A program made the position numbers and the translations under genes. Below are positions 23,255-31,137 of a stretch of 48,025 bases of DNA, in pieces. Positions within the stretch are counted from its first letter, which is position 1. Every line of letters starts with the position of its first letter. Origin of the DNA: Frankiaceae bacterium (GTDB lineage: Bacteria > Actinomycetota > Actinomycetes > JAFAQI01). The notes under the pieces were generated by a model, which was not told where the DNA came from, made no database searches, and saw nothing but the letters and a program-made list of their open reading frames with translations. Where the stretch lies: NCBI GenBank assembly GCA_030840585.1, contig JAVEEG010000211.1, positions 1-48,025 of the forward strand, written 5' to 3'.

Positions 23255-24505
23255 TCAGCGACCCTGGACGCCGCGCGCCGGGTAGCTGCGGTGGCGCGGG
23301 TAGTAGGCCATGCCCGGCGCTGCGAACACCGGCCGGCGGCGACCGGCCCGAGTCAGGAACGCACCGGAGGCGCACAGCCCGGCCGCGACGAGCGACATCT
23401 CCCACGTCGGCAGTCCGGTGAACGGCAGCCGGGTGACCTTCTCGCCAAGCACCGTCGGGTGCTTAGGCGTCCGGACGACCTTCTCGCCGAGCACGTGCGT
23501 GCACTTCTTCGCGTACGACTTGGTCGCGGTGGTCATGCCCGGCGCCGACACCGTGACGACACCGGTCTTGCCTTCAGCGACGTTGTACGTGCGCTTGACG
23601 ATGTGGTCGGCCGCGACGATGACGTGCTCGGTCGCGCCGGCCGGCGTCACGACGGTGAACGTGACGTCGTCGGTGGTCGTGTCGTCGAGCTTCATGTTGC
23701 TCATGACGACCTGGATGCCGTGGGCGCACGACGTACCGAACGAGACCTTGGGGTCGACCGCGCCACCGTCGGAGCTACCGCTGTCGCAGCTGGTGGGGCG
23801 CGAGTACGTGCCGAGCTGGTTCGAGTTGGTCTTGTCGGTCGCGGTCACCGTCGGGTGCGCGGCGCTGACGTCGATGTCGACGACCGACTCGGTGCCGGCG
23901 GGGACGGAGACGTCGTGCGCGGCGTCGACGCCGGACGGGTCGATGCGCACCGACGCGGCGTCGCTGCCGCCATCGATCGTGACGGTGGCCTTCGTGCAGT
24001 CACCGGTCACGCCACCACTCGTCGGGACGACCAGCGGGACCTCGGTCGGTTCGCCGTCACACAGGAACCAGTGGCTGATGGTGGGCACGTTGTCTTGCGC
24101 GAGGCCGACCATCGGTGCGTGCAGGCCGCTCACCGGGAGGGTCGCAAACACGCTCGAGGAGTAGACGTTGTAAGCGTCGCCGCCCTTGACCACCAATGCG
24201 TGGATTTGGGTGCCGTCCGGAATCGCCGAAACGGTGAGGTTGCTGCCGTCGCTGGTGATGACGAAGTCGTTCGCGGAGTAACCACCACTGCCGTTTACCG
24301 CGACCTCGGTGTCGCCATCGAAGCCGAGCTGACTGCACGCGCTGGTCTTGCCGTCGTGGAGGTTGCCCGGATACGCGGTCGCGCGCTGGTCACCTGCGGT
24401 GGGAGTGGAAGTCGTCGCGGCGAACGCGGCGGCCGCGCCGGCGAATGGTGCAACGACACAGACAGCGGCACCGGCGATCATTAACCGGGCGAAACGTGCA
24501 GACAT
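23255..24505 (-). CDS. Secreted LPxTG-type (LPFTG) cell-wall-anchored protein
   Basis: Signal peptide; VVKGG..YNVY..ISHWFLC domain; VLGEKVTRLPFTG + TM + basic tail. Confidence 0.82.
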   Translation of the reverse strand: MSARFARLMIAGAAVCVVAPFAGAAAAFAATTSTPTAGDQRATAYPGNLHDGKTSACSQLGFDGDTEVAVNGSGGYSANDFVITSDGSNLTVSAIPDGTQIHALVVKGGDAYNVYSSSVFATLPVSGLHAPMVGLAQDNVPTISHWFLCDGEPTEVPLVVPTSGGVTGDCTKATVTIDGGSDAASVRIDPSGVDAAHDVSVPAGTESVVDIDVSAAHPTVTATDKTNSNQLGTYSRPTSCDSGSSDGGAVDPKVSFGTSCAHGIQVVMSNMKLDDTTTDDVTFTVVTPAGATEHVIVAADHIVKRTYNVAEGKTGVVTVSAPGMTTATKSYAKKCTHVLGEKVVRTPKHPTVLGEKVTRLPFTGLPTWEMSLVAAGLCASGAFLTRAGRRRPVFAAPGMAYYPRHRSYPARGVQGR

Positions 24506-24628
24506 CCGGATACTCCCCCAACACGCGCCGTGGGCTGGCGCTTCCTTCACGGTGGTCAGTTCCTAACCGTCCGTCAAGCAGTACGACGACATTCGGTCCT
24601 TTCTCCCGGTACGAGAATCCTCCGAACG

Positions 24629-24680: not shown

Positions 24681-27600
24681 TTAGGAATCTTCGCGCCGGC
24701 GAGCCGTCACCAGCGCCGCACCAACCGCGATCAGCAAGCTGGCGATCGCCACCGCGGTGACCGGCGGGAGGCCGGCCCCGGTGAACGGCAACGTCGGCGG
24801 CTTGCGGACCACCTTGATGCCCAACACCTGGATGATCGTCGTCTTCACTTCGTTGGACGGCTTGTCCGCGGTCTCGCCGGAGACGATGACACCGGAGTTG
24901 GTAACAGTCTTGGTCGGCAGCCCGACGGTCGAGTCGAACGCCGGCTTGTCGATCGTGACCTGGAACGTCACGTGCCGGGCATCCGCGCCGTGGGCGATGT
25001 CACCGAGCTCCCACGACACGGTGTGCGTCGCCGCGTCGTAACCGGTGGTGCACGGTCCCGCGTCGCTGCAGGCCGCGCTGCCGTCGACGTAGGTCGTACC
25101 GTCCGGCACCACGTCCGTGACGACGACGCCGGTCTGGTCGAGGTCACCGGTAGTGGCCGCGTCCAGCGTGTAAGTCAGCGTGTCGCCGTATGCCGCGGAC
25201 GTCTGGTCGACGTGCTTGACGAGGGTCAGGTCGCCGGTCGGCACGTGGTGATCAGTCGTGCACGGGTCGCTCCCCGCCGGCGCACCCGGGCACTCGCCGT
25301 CGATCAGGACCGCGTTGGTGAGCGTCGTACCTTCCGGCGCCGCCGCGTCGACCGTCACCGTGTAGGTGATCGTCGTGACTCCGTCGACTCCGTCCTGCGC
25401 GGCCGGCACGTCGACCAGCCAGGAGAGCTGGCCGTTGCTGTTGCTCGCCGCCGTCGGGGTCACCGACGAGTCGTCGAGCGTCACATTGGTCGGCAATGTG
25501 TCGACCACGGTGACGTCGTGCGCCGCGGCCAGGCCGGAGTTGCTCACCGTGATCGTGTAGTCGATCGAGTCGCCGCGCTGGACGATCGATCCGCTCGCCG
25601 GGTCGGCCGTCTTGGCCAACGCGAGTACGGCGAACTCGACCTCGTGGTGCGTCGTGTTCGTGTGGCACAGACTCTGCGCCGGGTCGAGGCAGTCGGCCGA
25701 CGACGTGTGCGTGTTCGCGAACGTGCCGGTGTTGTCGATCAGCGTCCCGTTGACGTCGGTCTCGACGACGTGGGCCTGGAAGGACACTGCCACCGAGCCA
25801 CCCGCCGCCACGTCGACCGACCACGACACCGTGTTGGTGCCGCTGTCGAACATGCCGCCGGTCGCGTCCGCCGATCCCTGCACGTACTCGGTGCCGTCCG
25901 GTACGACGTCACTGACCGGTACGCCGGTCGCGTCCGCCAGCCCGTCGTTGTGAACGGTCAGCGTGTAGGTGATGTCGTCGCCGGGGCTGACCGGTGTCGG
26001 CGCGGCCGCGCTGCCCGACTCGGGGTCGGACGCCTTGGTAACCCTGATCTCCGGGTACTTGACCACGTGGTCCGTGACGTTGGTGTAACGGGTCGTGTGC
26101 CCGCTCGTCACCGACGCCTGGTTGTAGATGTGGTCGCCGTCGCCATCGCTCGCCTTCACGGTCACCGAGAAGCTGACCGTCGCGGAACTGCCCGCGGCGA
26201 TGTCGGTGGTCCAGGTGATGACGCCACCGGTCACGTCGATCGATCCGGCGCAACCCGCGCTGGTGCCGGTGCCACATGCCGCGTCGTTGTTGTACGTCGC
26301 CTTCGCGAAGACGTTGACGCTCGGGTCGGCGGAGGCACCCGAGGCCGGCTCAGCGATCTGTACGTCGGTCGCCGTCACACTGCCGGTGTTCTGCACCGTG
26401 ATCGTGTAGTTGATCGTGTTGTTCGGCGCGTCCACCGACACGACACCGGAGGCCGGAGCCTTGACCGGCGCCGGGATCAGCGGCGAGTGCGAGATCTCGT
26501 TGTTGTCGACGGTGCCGCAACTCTCGACCGCGGAGTTGTTGTTGGCGTCGCCGTCGTACGTGACCTTCCAGTAGAAGTTCGTGTGCGTCCCGTCGACCGC
26601 GACGTTCGGCGACGTGGCGTCACCATTCGCGTCGAGCGCGACGTCACCGTCGGACGCGGTGGTCGGCCAGTACGCCGTTCCGCCGCAGCCGGCCGCCGTG
26701 TACAGCGCGAAGTGGACCGTCTCGCCGGTCACGCTGGACGCGAAGTCACGCAGGTGCGCGACATCGTGCACCGTGCCGTCGACAGTGCCGGTGTTGCTGG
26801 CGACCGTCGTCAGGTTCGGCGTGGCCTTGCCCACGATGACCTGCTCACCGGTGTCGGTGCAGCTGCCCGGCAGCTTGTCGCTGCCGATCGTCAGGACGGC
26901 CAGCCAGTGGTACGTGCCGGCAGTGCTGACGCTCGTCGTGATCGGCTGCGCCGGGTAGGTGCCCGGGCCGCTGACCGCGACCGACGAGCCGACCTTCTTC
27001 GCCGCGTCGGGCGAGTTCGGGTTGCAGGCCTGGCCGGTCTTGTAGAGGTAGAAGTCGATGGTGCCGGTGGCGGCCTGCTGGATGCCGCTGATCGTCGCCT
27101 GGTCGCCGATCGTCGCGGTCGGGTTGAGCGCGAGTGGGCTGTTCACCGTGGTCGAAGGTGACGCGACCGTGCCGAGGCTCGCCATCGGGTCGTGGACCTC
27201 GACGGTGAACAACGTGGTCGTCACGTTCGCCGACGTGATCGGCTGCACGGCGAAGACGTCATTCGGAGCGTCCGGCACCGTGTACGGCCACGGCACGCCG
27301 GTCTCCTTCCAGTAGTACTGGTTCGGCCAAGTCGCGTGCGTGTAGTTCGCGGTGCAGAAACCGTTACTGCCGGTCGTGCAGGTGAAGCCGACGCTGGTGT
27401 CCGCGTCGGTCTGGCCGCTGGCGGCGGTCTGCAGACCGGCCACGCCGTTGCTCTCGACCCACAGCGCGAACGTCGCGCCGGCGATCGGCGTCGTACCCGG
27501 CACGTCGGTCTTGTGCACAGTCAGCGAGGTTTCATGTTGCGCGTCGTGGACGTCGACCGAGACGTTCTGGTGAGTCTGGTCGACGACGACACCGGTGACG

Positions 27601-28865
27601 TTCGCGGCAGTGTCGTAGCCCTGCGGCGTCACGGATTCGTGCAGGTCGTAAGTGCCAGGGGCGACGTCACTGAAGACCAGCGTGCCGTCGCCGTCGCTGT
27701 CCGCGACGGTGTCGACAACGGCTTGGGTCGCGTGGTTCAGCAACTGGAAGCTGCTGTGCCCGAGTGCGGCTGAGCCGGCGGTCTTCTTGTGCACGGTGAT
27801 GCTGCCCTGACCATCGACGAACACCGGCACCGGCGAGTTCGCGGCGCCGGTCGGCACCGTCACGCTCGGCGACGACGAGTCGACGAAGTATCCGGAGGGC
27901 GGGGACTGCTCGGTCACGGTGTAGTTGCCCGGCGTCACCGGGTCGACCGTGATCTGGCCGTCGGCCGGGTCGCTGTCGTACGTGCCGTTGTCGAGCACGT
28001 CGAGGTAGGCGCCCGGGCTCGCGACCGGCCGCGGATCCGGTGTGATCCGGAAGGTCGCGCCGGCGAGCAACGCACCGGAGCCGTCGTGCTTCACGATCTT
28101 CAGCTGGCCACAGCTGGAACCGGCCGACAGCTTGAGCGGCTTGATGAAGTCCTTGAGGTTCTCGCCGGTCTCGCCGGTGACGTTGCGGAATCCGAGCGAC
28201 CCGAACAGCGGCGGGCAGGCCGGCTGCAGGTTGAGCAGAGTTGTCAGGTCGAAGGCGAACTCCAGGAACGACTCGTCCGCACTGATCGCGTAGTCGAAAC
28301 CGGCCTGGTTCACGCTCACCGACGTCCACGCGCCGCTGACCCACTTCGATGCGGACGCGAGCGCGATGACGCCGTTGCCCTTGTCATCCAACCGGAATCG
28401 CAGGTCGTTGTCGGAGCGGACTGGCGCGTAAGTCGTGGTGTTGGTCGGCTGCAGCTTGTTCAGTTCGAGGTAGTAGGAGTCGGTGCCCGAGGTCGCGCCG
28501 CGGTCGAATGCGAAGAACACGTCAGCCGTGTTCGGCTTCGCGTAGCCGTAGATGTTCGTCATGTCGTCCTTCGGCGGCGCACCGCCGGCGATCGTCCATG
28601 TCGACGGATCGTTGCTTTCCTTGCTACTCGCCGAATAGACCGTCGGGTCGCCGCCCGCGTCGTCGTTCTCGATCGGCTGCGTGCCGACGGCCGCACTCGT
28701 CCAGTCGAGGTTGGCGGCGTTGTCGACCGTCTTGTTGCCGTCGATCTCGAATCCCGCGTCGAGACCCGCGGCGCCGGCCTGGGTTACGAATGCCGCAGGC
28801 AGCCACATCACCGACAGCAGGAGTGCCGTAAGACCCGCGAAGAACCGGCGGCTGAAACGATGCAT
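24681..28865 (-). CDS. Large LPFTG-anchored adhesin with SpaA/CnaB-type and DUF11-like isopeptide domains
   Basis: Signal peptide; LAGATF..PGNYTVTE..P.GY repeats; K..DP..GD.I.YT.TV.N repeats; LPFTG + TM + RRR. Confidence 0.9.
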   Translation of the reverse strand: MHRFSRRFFAGLTALLLSVMWLPAAFVTQAGAAGLDAGFEIDGNKTVDNAANLDWTSAAVGTQPIENDDAGGDPTVYSASSKESNDPSTWTIAGGAPPKDDMTNIYGYAKPNTADVFFAFDRGATSGTDSYYLELNKLQPTNTTTYAPVRSDNDLRFRLDDKGNGVIALASASKWVSGAWTSVSVNQAGFDYAISADESFLEFAFDLTTLLNLQPACPPLFGSLGFRNVTGETGENLKDFIKPLKLSAGSSCGQLKIVKHDGSGALLAGATFRITPDPRPVASPGAYLDVLDNGTYDSDPADGQITVDPVTPGNYTVTEQSPPSGYFVDSSSPSVTVPTGAANSPVPVFVDGQGSITVHKKTAGSAALGHSSFQLLNHATQAVVDTVADSDGDGTLVFSDVAPGTYDLHESVTPQGYDTAANVTGVVVDQTHQNVSVDVHDAQHETSLTVHKTDVPGTTPIAGATFALWVESNGVAGLQTAASGQTDADTSVGFTCTTGSNGFCTANYTHATWPNQYYWKETGVPWPYTVPDAPNDVFAVQPITSANVTTTLFTVEVHDPMASLGTVASPSTTVNSPLALNPTATIGDQATISGIQQAATGTIDFYLYKTGQACNPNSPDAAKKVGSSVAVSGPGTYPAQPITTSVSTAGTYHWLAVLTIGSDKLPGSCTDTGEQVIVGKATPNLTTVASNTGTVDGTVHDVAHLRDFASSVTGETVHFALYTAAGCGGTAYWPTTASDGDVALDANGDATSPNVAVDGTHTNFYWKVTYDGDANNNSAVESCGTVDNNEISHSPLIPAPVKAPASGVVSVDAPNNTINYTITVQNTGSVTATDVQIAEPASGASADPSVNVFAKATYNNDAACGTGTSAGCAGSIDVTGGVITWTTDIAAGSSATVSFSVTVKASDGDGDHIYNQASVTSGHTTRYTNVTDHVVKYPEIRVTKASDPESGSAAAPTPVSPGDDITYTLTVHNDGLADATGVPVSDVVPDGTEYVQGSADATGGMFDSGTNTVSWSVDVAAGGSVAVSFQAHVVETDVNGTLIDNTGTFANTHTSSADCLDPAQSLCHTNTTHHEVEFAVLALAKTADPASGSIVQRGDSIDYTITVSNSGLAAAHDVTVVDTLPTNVTLDDSSVTPTAASNSNGQLSWLVDVPAAQDGVDGVTTITYTVTVDAAAPEGTTLTNAVLIDGECPGAPAGSDPCTTDHHVPTGDLTLVKHVDQTSAAYGDTLTYTLDAATTGDLDQTGVVVTDVVPDGTTYVDGSAACSDAGPCTTGYDAATHTVSWELGDIAHGADARHVTFQVTIDKPAFDSTVGLPTKTVTNSGVIVSGETADKPSNEVKTTIIQVLGIKVVRKPPTLPFTGAGLPPVTAVAIASLLIAVGAALVTARRREDS

Positions 28866-28891
28866 CGGGCACCCCTACTTCGAAAGACGAA

Positions 28892-28985
28892 GCACGGGTC
28901 GGTCTCACCAGTGGCTCCCCGCGACCGGGCACTTGTAAGTGCCGGTGACCGATACGTCAGTCGCGGATCAACGCCCCCCGAGCGC
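28892..28985 (-). promoter_or_regulatory. Candidate c-di-GMP-II riboswitch (GAG variant)
   Basis: Kink-turn-like TGA/GGAG flanking stem CCGCGACTG/CGGTCGCGG; pseudoknot TCGGTCACC with GGTGAGACCGA; 3' GGAGCCACTGGTGAGACCGACC; in the adhesin 5' leader. Confidence 0.78.
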
Positions 28986-29171
28986 GCCGGCAAAGGCCGA
29001 CAACGCCACATTCGGCGCTATGGGCGTTGCCGTCAAAGGCCACCGGTCCCCCTTGTAGGGCGATGTCGGATATGCCCCTGGAAGTGCAGCCGTTCGGACA
29101 TCGGGCGATAGGCCGACGTGACTACACATGCCGCCCCCAACCTGAGGGTGCGAATCGACCGATCGTTGAGA

Positions 29172-30275
29172 TCAGTCAGCCTGTTGGCGGCGCCAGCGGA
29201 TCTCGGCATCGACGAATGCGTCGATGTCGCCGTCGAGGACCGCGGCGGTATTGCCCACCTCGACCTCTGTGCGCGCGTCTTTCACGAGCTGGTACGGGTG
29301 CAGGACGTAGTGCCGGATGATGTCGTCGCTGCCGAACCCGACCGTGTTGCGGGATCCCTTGAGCCGCCGCATCTCGTCGGCCTCCTCTTGCCGGCGCGAT
29401 TCCAGCAGCCGCGCCTGCAACACCTCCATCGCACGCGCGCGGTTCTGGATCTGGCTGCGCTCGTTCTGGCAGGTGACGACGATCCCCGTAGGCAGGTGCG
29501 TGAGCCGGACTGCGGAGTCCGTGGTGTTGACGCCCTGGCCGCCTGGGCCGCTGGACCGGTAGACGTCGACGCGGATCTCGTCGTCGGGGATGTCGACATG
29601 GTCGGTGGCCTCGACCACCGGAGTGACATCGACGCCGGCGAACGAGGTCTGCCGGCGGGCTTGGTTGTCGAACGGCGAGATGCGCACCAGCCGGTGCACG
29701 CCGTGCTCGCCGGCCAGCGTCCCGTACGCGAACGGCGCCTTGACCACGAACGTCGCCGACTTGATGCCGGCCTCTTCGGCGTACGACGTGTCGTAGACCT
29801 CGGTTTGGTAGCCGTGCCGCTCGGCCCAGCGGGTGTACATCCGGAACAGCATGAGCGCCCAATCGGCCGCGTCGGTGCCGCCGGTGCCGGAGTTGATCGT
29901 GACGACGGCTTCCCGCGGGTCGTATTCGCCGGAGAGCAGCGTGCGGACCTCAAGGCCCGCGATGTCGGTGGCGAGCGCAGGCAGATCCGCCGTGGCTTCC
30001 TCGATCAGCGCGACATCGTCGAGGTCGATCGCGGCCTGGATGTCGTCGAGCCGGCCGCGCAACGCCTCGACCCGGGCCAAGTCGCTGCGCAGGTGCGACA
30101 TCCGGCTGGTGACCGACTGCGCCCGCTCCTGGTCGTTCCAGAGCTCGGGATCGGCGGCCTCTTCTTCGAGCACGGCCAGCTGCTTGCGCATGCCGTCGAG
30201 GTCGAGCACCGTTTCGACCGACGACATCGTCGCCGCGAGCTGTGCGACCCGCTCCCTCATATCTCCCGGCGGCAT
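29172..30275 (-). CDS. prfB: Peptide chain release factor 2
   Basis: [11 protein letters not shown] (SPF), GPGGQGVN (GGQ), NERSQ; single uninterrupted ORF. Confidence 0.97.
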
Positions 30276-30295
30276 GCGGGCAAGACTAGTCGCGG

Positions 30296-30757
30296 TCAGC
30301 ACCCAGCCGCCGACAGCGGCGACCGCGCGTGCGCGGTGACATCGACCCGCATGCTCCGTACGCCGAACAGCCCGCCGAACGGGACCTTCGCCGCACCGCT
30401 CAGGTGCACGGTCACCGTCCCCGCATCGACCTGCACGCCGGCCGGATCGAGTTCGCGGAACGCGCGCCGTAAGTCGGCCTCGTCGTCCGCGACGGCGACG
30501 AGCACACGCCTGCGAGCCACGTCCGCGTCGATCGGCAGCACCGCGCCGCAGCCGCCGGCCGCGCCGGCATAGATCGCCGTACGGTCGACGGCTTGGGCGG
30601 CGCCGAGCGCGGCCGCATCAGCCGTCGAGGCGAGCGCCCGCCGGGCCAGGAACACCGCGGACACGTCGACCCCGACCACGATGAGAACCAACGCGACGGC
30701 GGCGTACCCGATCAGCAGCAAGGTGATCTGCCCGCCGTCGTCGCGCCGGGTCAACAC
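30296..30757 (-). CDS. TadG-like pilus assembly protein
   Basis: DDGGQITLL prepilin-like N-terminus, [10 protein letters not shown]. Confidence 0.82.
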
Positions 30758-31137
30758 GTGCCCGCGCCAGGGCCGGCGTAGCAGTCCAGCCGCTCGCGGT
30801 GGTGCGCCGACACGACGATGCCGGCGACACATCGCTGCCCGCACAACCACGAGGGCACGAACGGCAGCGTCACGGTACGGCGAAGATCGACCGTGAACGT
30901 CGAGCCGGGCGCGTACGAGCAATCGCCGCACGAGATCACCCGGCCGGTCGGCGCCCAGCGCACGCCGTGATCGCGCATCACCAGCGCCACCGCCTGCTCG
31001 GCGCGCTGCTCACCCGCGGCGTCGGACCCTGCGGTTGCGTACGCCCGCGCGGCCTCTCGGGCCGCCGCCGTCTCCGCGAACGCCGCCCGCTGCACCGACA
31101 ACGCAGCCATGACGACATAGACGAGCGGCACCATCAG
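30751..31137 (-). pseudogene. 5'-truncated TadE-like pseudopilin
   Basis: LMVPLVY..AAAREAARAY; the prepilin leader is missing and the frame abuts the left inverted repeat. Confidence 0.75.

Follow-up and report, generated by a model that had tools for sequence, protein, structure and literature searches.

What does the RNA element ahead of a large adhesin gene sense in an uncultured soil actinomycete, and how could it act on that gene? The question arises from a 48,025-nucleotide (nt) stretch of DNA from a Frankiaceae bacterium (assembly GCA_030840585.1, contig JAVEEG010000211.1), here named the window, in which an earlier note had marked positions 28892..28985 as a GAG variant of the class II cyclic di-GMP (c-di-GMP-II) riboswitch with an extra hairpin, upstream of an adhesin. 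The flagged stretch was confirmed as a genuine member of the catalogued c-di-GMP-II-GAG family (RF03169), of which it is a good but ordinary example; its coordinates were correct and it reads on the minus strand. It is probably a functional riboswitch of this family, lying in the leader at the 5' end of an operon for the adhesin, between prfB and ftsE, and acting as a translational ON switch for a c-di-GMP-like ligand. The family, the helices with their covariation and the setting among the genes were observed directly; the direction of the switch, the level at which it acts and its ligand are inferred.

The window was scanned with Infernal cmscan against Rfam at gathering thresholds, the check that the earlier note had proposed for c-di-GMP-II and its GAG and GCG variants. 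Only two matches were returned, a tmRNA (19535..19177) and RF03169 c-di-GMP-II-GAG at 28987..28888 on the minus strand, the latter with 66.9 bits (cut-off 40 bits) and an E-value of 2.7e-11. The RF03169 match is full length (model positions 1-86/86); against the whole 3.56-Mb genome its E-value was 4.8e-13, and it is the best-scoring RF03169 copy of that genome. The same locus scored 58.9 bits with RF03170 c-di-GMP-II-GCG, which also passes its cut-off (47.9 bits) and lies 8 bits under the GAG model, and 39.2 bits with RF01786, the canonical c-di-GMP-II model, under its cut-off of 53.5 bits. RF03169 gave the best score of the clan, in agreement with the class II, GAG variant call made from the letters. 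A 2017 survey of variant riboswitches from the Breaker laboratory reportedly described this family (clan CL00127).

With RF03169 the element shares the full-length match, the GAG triplet, the kink-turn, helices P1, P2 and P3, the pseudoknot and a site in the 5' untranslated region before an exported or wall-anchored protein. Nothing that defines the family differs; the window copy bears, on the 3' side of the pseudoknot strand, a hairpin of 16 nt, modelled as an insertion, and its sub-group has an A-U instead of a G-C pair in the pseudoknot. A G at position 69 is shared with RF03170, but the middle base of the triplet is A and not C. By every feature tested, the sequence fits membership of RF03169, while membership of RF01786 fails by score and by the pocket, as mapped below.

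The element was compared across 41 genomes, its own and relatives, of which 28 carry RF03169 (27 above the cut-off), including 20 of the 24 of the same family, with 94 matches in total. Seventy-seven of these were examined, the 17 lowest-scoring (<=44.9 bits) being left out; 62 were parsed by pattern and the other 15, for which the pattern was too strict, were classified by eye. Twenty parsed aptamers whose pseudoknot contains an A-U pair, here called the relatives, were aligned by plain MAFFT, not fitted to any structure, and pairing is given below as the percentage of alignment cells paired. The kink-turn-like motif, the pseudoknot and the GAG triplet that had been read in the sequence were all present on the minus strand, and the parts of the aptamer are as follows.

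28888..28987, minus strand: aptamer, RF03169 at full length, 66.9 bits, model 1-86/86.
28983-28977, minus strand: P1 5' strand GCTCGGG, pairing with 28898-28892.
28898-28892, minus strand: P1 3' strand CCCGTGC, which doubles as the 5' arm of a candidate hairpin sequestering the Shine-Dalgarno (SD) sequence.
28975-28973 with 28915-28913, minus strand: P2, GGC/GCC, 100% of cells paired.
28968..28975 with 28918-28913, minus strand: kink-turn, with a 3-nt bulge GTT and G-A facing G-A (partner strand GGA then GCC).
28966-28959 with 28926-28919, minus strand: P3, 96% of cells paired, with two pairs changed on both sides.
28951-28944, minus strand: pseudoknot (P4) 5' strand CGGTCACC, in the P3 loop.
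28943-28928, minus strand: extra hairpin GGCACT/TACA/AGTGCC, between the pseudoknot 5' strand and the P3 3' strand.
28909-28900, minus strand: pseudoknot 3' strand GGTGAGACCG, with the GAG triplet at 28906-28904.

The alignment of the relatives agreed with this structure. In the proposed register 83% of cells were paired, compared with 38-45% when the 3' partners were slid, and the covariation score was 0.234 versus 0.065-0.136 for the slid registers, a value reached by none of 500 shuffles. The G-A/G-A of the kink-turn is invariant in 20/20, the GAG triplet is present in 19/20, and the A, C and C that follow the triplet are invariant. The two pseudoknot strands are complementary except for two unpaired bases, the middle A-G of GGTGAGACCG, and form 8 pairs with 99% of cells paired. 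The pseudoknot is invariant inside the A-U sub-group and covaries between sub-groups: at one pair, formed by an A of the 5' strand and a T of the 3' strand in the window copy, 20 of the 62 parsed aptamers have A-T, the other 42 have G-C, and mismatches are absent; this support is an independent test because the covariance model omits the pseudoknot.

P1 was paired in 61% of cells overall. Its inner three pairs are G-C in 16 to 20 of the 20 relatives, while the outer pairs are weak and the outer half is poorly supported; the low figure is partly due to P1 length varying and to the alignment not being structure-aware. In the window copy P1 contains one U-U mismatch, and the four outermost model pairs are non-standard (4 of 11 model pairs). 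The poorly paired outer P1 could be taken to indicate a chance or decayed look-alike without regulatory function, but such an origin is highly improbable, given the E-value of 4.8e-13 against the whole genome, the intact state of all pocket and kink-turn positions, and the retention of the element, with compensatory changes, before the orthologous gene in both same-genus genomes.

The manner in which the aptamer could act on the adhesin was examined in the segment between the two, for which the relevant features are these.

28871..28899, minus strand: candidate SD-sequestering hairpin, with 5' arm ACCCGTGCTTCG, loop TCTTT and 3' arm CGAAGTAGGGGT.
24681..28865, minus strand: adhesin-like open reading frame (ORF) of 1394 amino acids (aa), with three SpaA and four DUF11 domains, DUF7927, DUF7507 and LPFTG.

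The ATG of the adhesin (28865-28863) is on the same strand as the aptamer and 22 nt past its Rfam 3' end (28888); the distance of about 26 nt given earlier is correct when counted from the end coordinate used there. No terminator-like site was found between the aptamer and the ATG, and this absence, together with a distance of only 22 nt, points to control of translation initiation. The SD sequence AGGGG (28876-28872) lies within the CGAAGTAGGGGT arm, and when the segment from the pseudoknot to the ATG was folded alone it formed the hairpin 28899-28871 at -17.6 kcal/mol, in which 9 of the first 10 nt after the pseudoknot pair with the SD region, a result equalled by 1 of 100 dinucleotide shuffles. 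In the minimum-energy fold of the leader, ACCC at the start of the P1 3' strand likewise pairs with GGGT of the SD, and a CTTCG/CGAAG stem extends the pairing. The translational control suggested in the earlier note fits with these pairings.

The hairpin recurs elsewhere. Orthologues L008 and L013 keep it with different loops (8 pairs, 4/100 shuffles, and 9 pairs, 2/100 shuffles, respectively), and loci L036, L062 and L065 build the same P1-3'/SD hairpin from different sequences (0, 3 and 0 of 100 shuffles). P1 and the SD hairpin compete for the same CCC, so that a ligand stabilising P1 and the pseudoknot should expose the SD, as in an ON switch. In the ligand-free RNA, the P1 3' strand (ACCC...) would pair with the SD (...GGGGT), and the resulting 29-nt hairpin would hide the ribosome-binding site. 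Binding of a cyclic dinucleotide would lock P1 and the pseudoknot and draw the CCC into P1; the SD would then be freed and the adhesin translated. The cell would in this way make its sortase-anchored surface proteins when a 'sessile' signal is high. Folding and comparison together make this translational ON switch the probable mode of action.

For the direction of switching the support is modest. Only 6 of 18 loci of the hairpin-bearing A-U sub-group beat 95 of 100 shuffles in P1-3'/SD pairing, and in the other sub-group the signal is weak, with a mean of 3.9 P1-3'/SD pairs versus 2.9 in shuffled sequences. Whole-leader folds, constrained by enforcing the aptamer helices and blocking the pseudoknot strands to mimic the bound state, left the accessibility of the SD equal or little altered, with unpaired values of 0.14/0.14 for the window copy, and of 0.33/0.50, 0.25/0.29 and 0.30/0.28 at the remaining ones of the four loci. 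Nearest-neighbour folding of a G+C-rich leader plus coding sequence was judged too noisy, and the local hairpin and the comparison between loci were therefore relied on. A promoter scan found no sigma-70-like promoter, a result of low weight since actinomycete promoters are poorly covered. The unconstrained fold offers a rival pairing, between the P1 5' strand and CCCGA at the start codon.

This last pairing, which appears in the unconstrained minimum-energy fold, and the ambiguity of the whole-leader folds would also suit a functional aptamer working in another mode, either as an OFF switch or by acting on transcription, Rho access or mRNA stability. In each of the three orthologues, GGCRC in the 5' flank could also form 5 base pairs (bp) with GTGYC immediately downstream of the SD, and this pairing, which could coexist with the bound aptamer, would favour the same idea. 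Such another mode is nevertheless unlikely: no terminator-like hairpin with a T-run separates the aptamer from the ATG 22 nt away, and the P1-3'/SD hairpin recurs with different sequences at several loci. A direct anti-SD role for the arm of the extra hairpin was also considered and rejected; GTGCCCG occurs in its 3' arm and again after the SD, but this similarity is not kept in L008 and L013.

The annotation itself is routine, adding to the known cases in which a catalogued riboswitch stands ahead of a gene for a surface protein; the value of the finding lies in the question of the ligand. In the structure of a class II derivative (PMC13715770), the adenine directly after the first P2 pair forms the ceiling of the pocket, and the adenine eight positions after the ceiling, the reader of the alpha guanine (A69 of 3Q3Z, A64 of the Bh RNA), reads the alpha base by its sugar edge. 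The next adenine intercalates, the guanine three positions further reads the beta base, and a purine-purine pair of P1 makes the floor (PMC13715770). These residues were mapped by spacing, with Bh A56/A64/A65/G68 set against alignment columns 85/93/94/97 and with columns 84 and 13/98 also used. On this mapping, the relatives have the ceiling A in 20/20, the intercalating A in 20/20 and the beta-reader G in 19/20, while the floor pair is G-A in 10 and A-G in 6 of the 20. The element thus shares with canonical c-di-GMP-II (RF01786; 3Q3Z) its architecture, the spacing within the pocket and the identities of the ceiling base (A), the intercalating base (A) and the beta reader (G); it differs in scoring 39.2 bits, below the cut-off, in its first P2 pair, which is G-C and not A-U, and in its host, a high-G+C actinomycete.

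The differences bear on c-di-GMP as the ligand, and with the points that follow they weigh against it. The alpha reader, by the same mapping, is G at 28904 and in 19/20 relatives, where the canonical class has A. At positions 68 and 69 the window element reads A-G, and canonical members presumably read C-A, as the family names imply. The first P2 pair is G-C in 17/20 relatives and A-U in the two crystallised RNAs. With G at the alpha reader and G-C as the first P2 pair, binding of c-di-GMP cannot be assumed, and because the pocket differs at the contact that reads one ligand base, the idea of an altered specificity put forward in the earlier note stays alive. Class I c-di-GMP riboswitches are also matched three times in the genome (51.7-53.5 bits, cut-off 35), so that a second c-di-GMP sensor is not required, though C. 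difficile has both classes. A literature search found no experiment or binding data on any GAG-variant RNA, the name being only mentioned, and one further report (PMC3764141) deals with class I alone; the 2017 survey lay outside that search.

The same aptamer, with the same role in cis, could therefore answer to a ligand other than c-di-GMP, such as 3',3'-cyclic GMP-AMP (cGAMP), a different dinucleotide, cyclic or linear, or a signal not yet known, and the adhesin regulon would then follow a messenger separate from that read by the class I riboswitches. The changes at positions 68 and 69 and at the first P2 pair agree with this alternative, as does the finding that minor alterations of the pocket shift the order in which class II RNAs prefer the cyclic dinucleotides; an A-U to G-C swap alone gave affinity shifts of about 3-fold, in opposite directions, for two cGAMP isomers (PMC13715770). 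A precedent exists in class I: GEMM-I (c-di-GMP-I) variants sense c-AMP-GMP, a change of one or two pocket nucleotides altering the ligand, with both forms in one genome (PMC5473149). Class I is a different fold, however, and for class II GAG RNAs a ligand switch is a possibility only. The three class I matches already in the genome, and the occurrence beside GAG copies of GAA copies (8/62 parsed, one of them in this genome) that precede a different kind of gene, are also compatible with a separate ligand.

On the other side, none of the 41 genomes has a match to canonical class II (RF01786) above the cut-off, and the sub-threshold matches that were compared lie at GAG loci; the GAG form is therefore the only class II form there. 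In genomes as rich in GGDEF and EAL domains as these, this would fit a lineage-specific build of the same sensor. The association with sortase-substrate genes is also the classical one of c-di-GMP-II. In C. difficile, c-di-GMP-II riboswitches are located ahead of a pilin operon and of CD2831 and CD3246, two adhesins that are sortase substrates, and more adhesin is produced when c-di-GMP is high (PMC11477304). The window element shares with these the association with sortase-anchored adhesins, and the ON response proposed here is alike (PMC11477304); by analogy, it would work as the C. difficile class II riboswitches do. Judged from the sequence, c-di-GMP is somewhat favoured as the ligand of the GAG aptamer, another dinucleotide is clearly less probable, and some other ligand, or none, takes up the rest. 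In the proposed mechanism, the ligand would most likely be c-di-GMP or else a cyclic dinucleotide very similar to it.

Should another ligand than c-di-GMP prove to occupy the GAG pocket, this would represent a new signalling input to actinomycete adhesion; should c-di-GMP be bound there, the class II pocket tolerates A69G. Six copies with GAG, one with GAA, three class I matches, and 31 GGDEF and 22 EAL domain matches make the genome a compact test set for this question, and the orthologues of the window copy supply natural compensatory mutants. The 31 GGDEF and 22 EAL matches were accompanied by one diadenylate cyclase; one of the GGDEF matches lies in the window, at 42146-42601 on the minus strand, in a frame of 536 aa. 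The class I matches are the following.

G000:C139:713-806, C51:25012-25091 and C364:12148-12230: class I c-di-GMP riboswitch matches.

The ORF after the C364 copy contains in its N-terminus the stretch GFTLIELLVV, which we take to be prepilin-like and which would suggest a type IV pilin-like gene.

The modest interest of the locus rests on the ligand of the GAG pocket and also on a clean architecture of two sub-groups, to which the extra hairpin belongs. The inserted hairpin that had been noticed is real, but not in the form proposed: a stem of 7 bp closed by a 2-nt loop is replaced, on steric grounds, by a 6-bp stem with a 4-nt loop. It corresponds to a 14-nt insertion relative to the RF03169 model and has a folding energy of -8.5 kcal/mol. 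In the alignment of the relatives its columns are 74% paired and 6/6 pairs are changed on both sides, and the orthologue hairpins GGCAC/GTGCC and GGCGTC/GACGCC show compensatory changes with respect to GGCACT/AGTGCC of the window.

The A-U pseudoknot sub-group (GGTCAC... with ...GGTGA) comprises 29 aptamers, 20 parsed and 9 classified by eye, and an insertion 3' of the pseudoknot 5' strand is present in 29/29. Its length is 10-21 nt in the 20 parsed aptamers, and some of the others are longer; all 20 parsed inserts fold as hairpins with quite different stems, and the 9 by-eye cases were inspected, not folded. The genes that follow aptamers of this sub-group encode SpaA/DUF11 surface proteins and secreted subtilases. 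The G-C pseudoknot sub-group comprises 48 aptamers (42 parsed, 6 by eye), and a hairpin 3' of the pseudoknot 5' strand was found in 0/48, the spacing being 0-9 nt in the 36 that could be measured. Most G-C aptamers have instead a hairpin of 14-57 nt on the 5' side of the pseudoknot strand, and a few are minimal. One aptamer with the usual 3'-side hairpin, L060 (G009:C10:50852-50953), has GGG in place of GAG at the pocket triplet.

The pairing and the distribution over the sub-groups indicate that the hairpin is a real, selected helix, and the norm for the A-U sub-group rather than something peculiar to this locus. It would be a structural addition to the P3 loop, characteristic of one sub-group, and lie outside the switch. 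Sequences that are related do not count as independent, and the split of 29/0 versus 0/48 may reflect no more than two old paralogous lineages.

The 1394-aa protein has an N-terminal signal peptide, a match to an isopeptide domain, and an LPFTG motif with a hydrophobic stretch and then RRRED after it. The signal peptide, the SpaA and DUF11 domains and the sorting signal bear out the adhesin named in the earlier note, and their sequence characters identify it as a predicted sortase-anchored, adhesin-like surface protein. Two sortase genes were found elsewhere in the genome. The genes on either side are as follows.

23255..24550, minus strand: 431-aa protein, the second gene of the cassette, with a signal peptide and an LPFTG anchor.
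29172..30302, minus strand: prfB (release factor 2), the upstream neighbour, with its stop codon 184 nt ahead of the aptamer.

The 431-aa protein matched no family in Pfam or NCBIfam. Past its gene lie ftsE, ftsX, one open frame, an SmpB-like frame and the tmRNA, and this gene order indicates that the cassette of aptamer, adhesin and 431-aa gene was inserted within a conserved prfB-ftsE-ftsX-smpB-ssrA backbone. The tmRNA gene (ssrA, 19177-19535, minus strand) is full length with 170 bits, and the SmpB-like frame of 160 aa is just upstream of it on the same strand. The order prfB-aptamer-adhesin is kept in both same-genus genomes, where prfB is 91-92% identical and the adhesin 81% and 77% identical. 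Outside the genus, the nearest relatives of prfB (76-79% identical) come from three metagenome-assembled genomes named 'Mycobacteriales bacterium' (L076-L078); there prfB lies directly next to ftsE, and no aptamer was found after prfB. Judged by the similarity of prfB, the source organism stands near Mycobacteriales, Frankiaceae and Acidothermus. The prfB-aptamer arrangement was also found in three more distant genomes (L012, L017 and L090). The gap between prfB and ftsE is, across these and the same-genus genomes, a recurrent home of a secreted-protein gene controlled by a GAG riboswitch.

The genome contains seven RF03169 matches, six of them above the cut-off, made up of six GAG copies and one GAA copy, and all seven are directly 5' of ORFs with signal peptides. 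The genes that follow are this adhesin, a secreted subtilase, three proteins (two of them with weak matches to a LAXTG-type anchor), one small secreted protein and one short ORF ahead of an Lrp-type regulator. The copy before the short ORF (MRTVL...) and the Lrp/AsnC-type regulator is an aptamer form of 120-130 nt, with a long hairpin on the 5' side of the pseudoknot strand, located at G000:C369:12312-12437 (L006) and found also as L023-L027, L029, L030 and others. In several relatives this Lrp-associated form is the sole reported match, so that it may be the member under the strongest conservation in the regulon.

GAG was found in 54 and GAA in 8 of the 62 parsed aptamers. The GAA copies are L005 (G000:C171:26128-26213), L028, L052, L065, L068, L071, L073 and L074, together with L032, L033, L051 and L070 by eye. 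They keep A at the position reading the alpha base, are mostly minimal, without the extra hairpin, and precede small secreted proteins of no known family; they coexist with GAG copies in the same genomes and constitute a natural comparison set for ligand specificity. As a tentative extension, these soil actinomycetes could have two parallel nucleotide-signal regulons, one reading c-di-GMP through the class I (and perhaps the GAA) copies and the other reading a separate messenger through the GAG copies, which would control adhesins, subtilases and the Lrp-type regulator, with the coupling of the A-U pair and the hairpin marking a distinct sub-class.

Just 5' of P1, the segment 28988-29040 (minus strand) contains a small hairpin CGGC/GCCG, represented by GCCGG/CCGGC in both orthologues. 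It is preceded by a 9-bp stem, GGCAACGCC/GGCGTTGTC; the two could be a terminator of prfB, a leader structure or neither. A TadE/G-like Flp-pilus assembly protein is encoded at 30296-30931 of the window, also on the minus strand.

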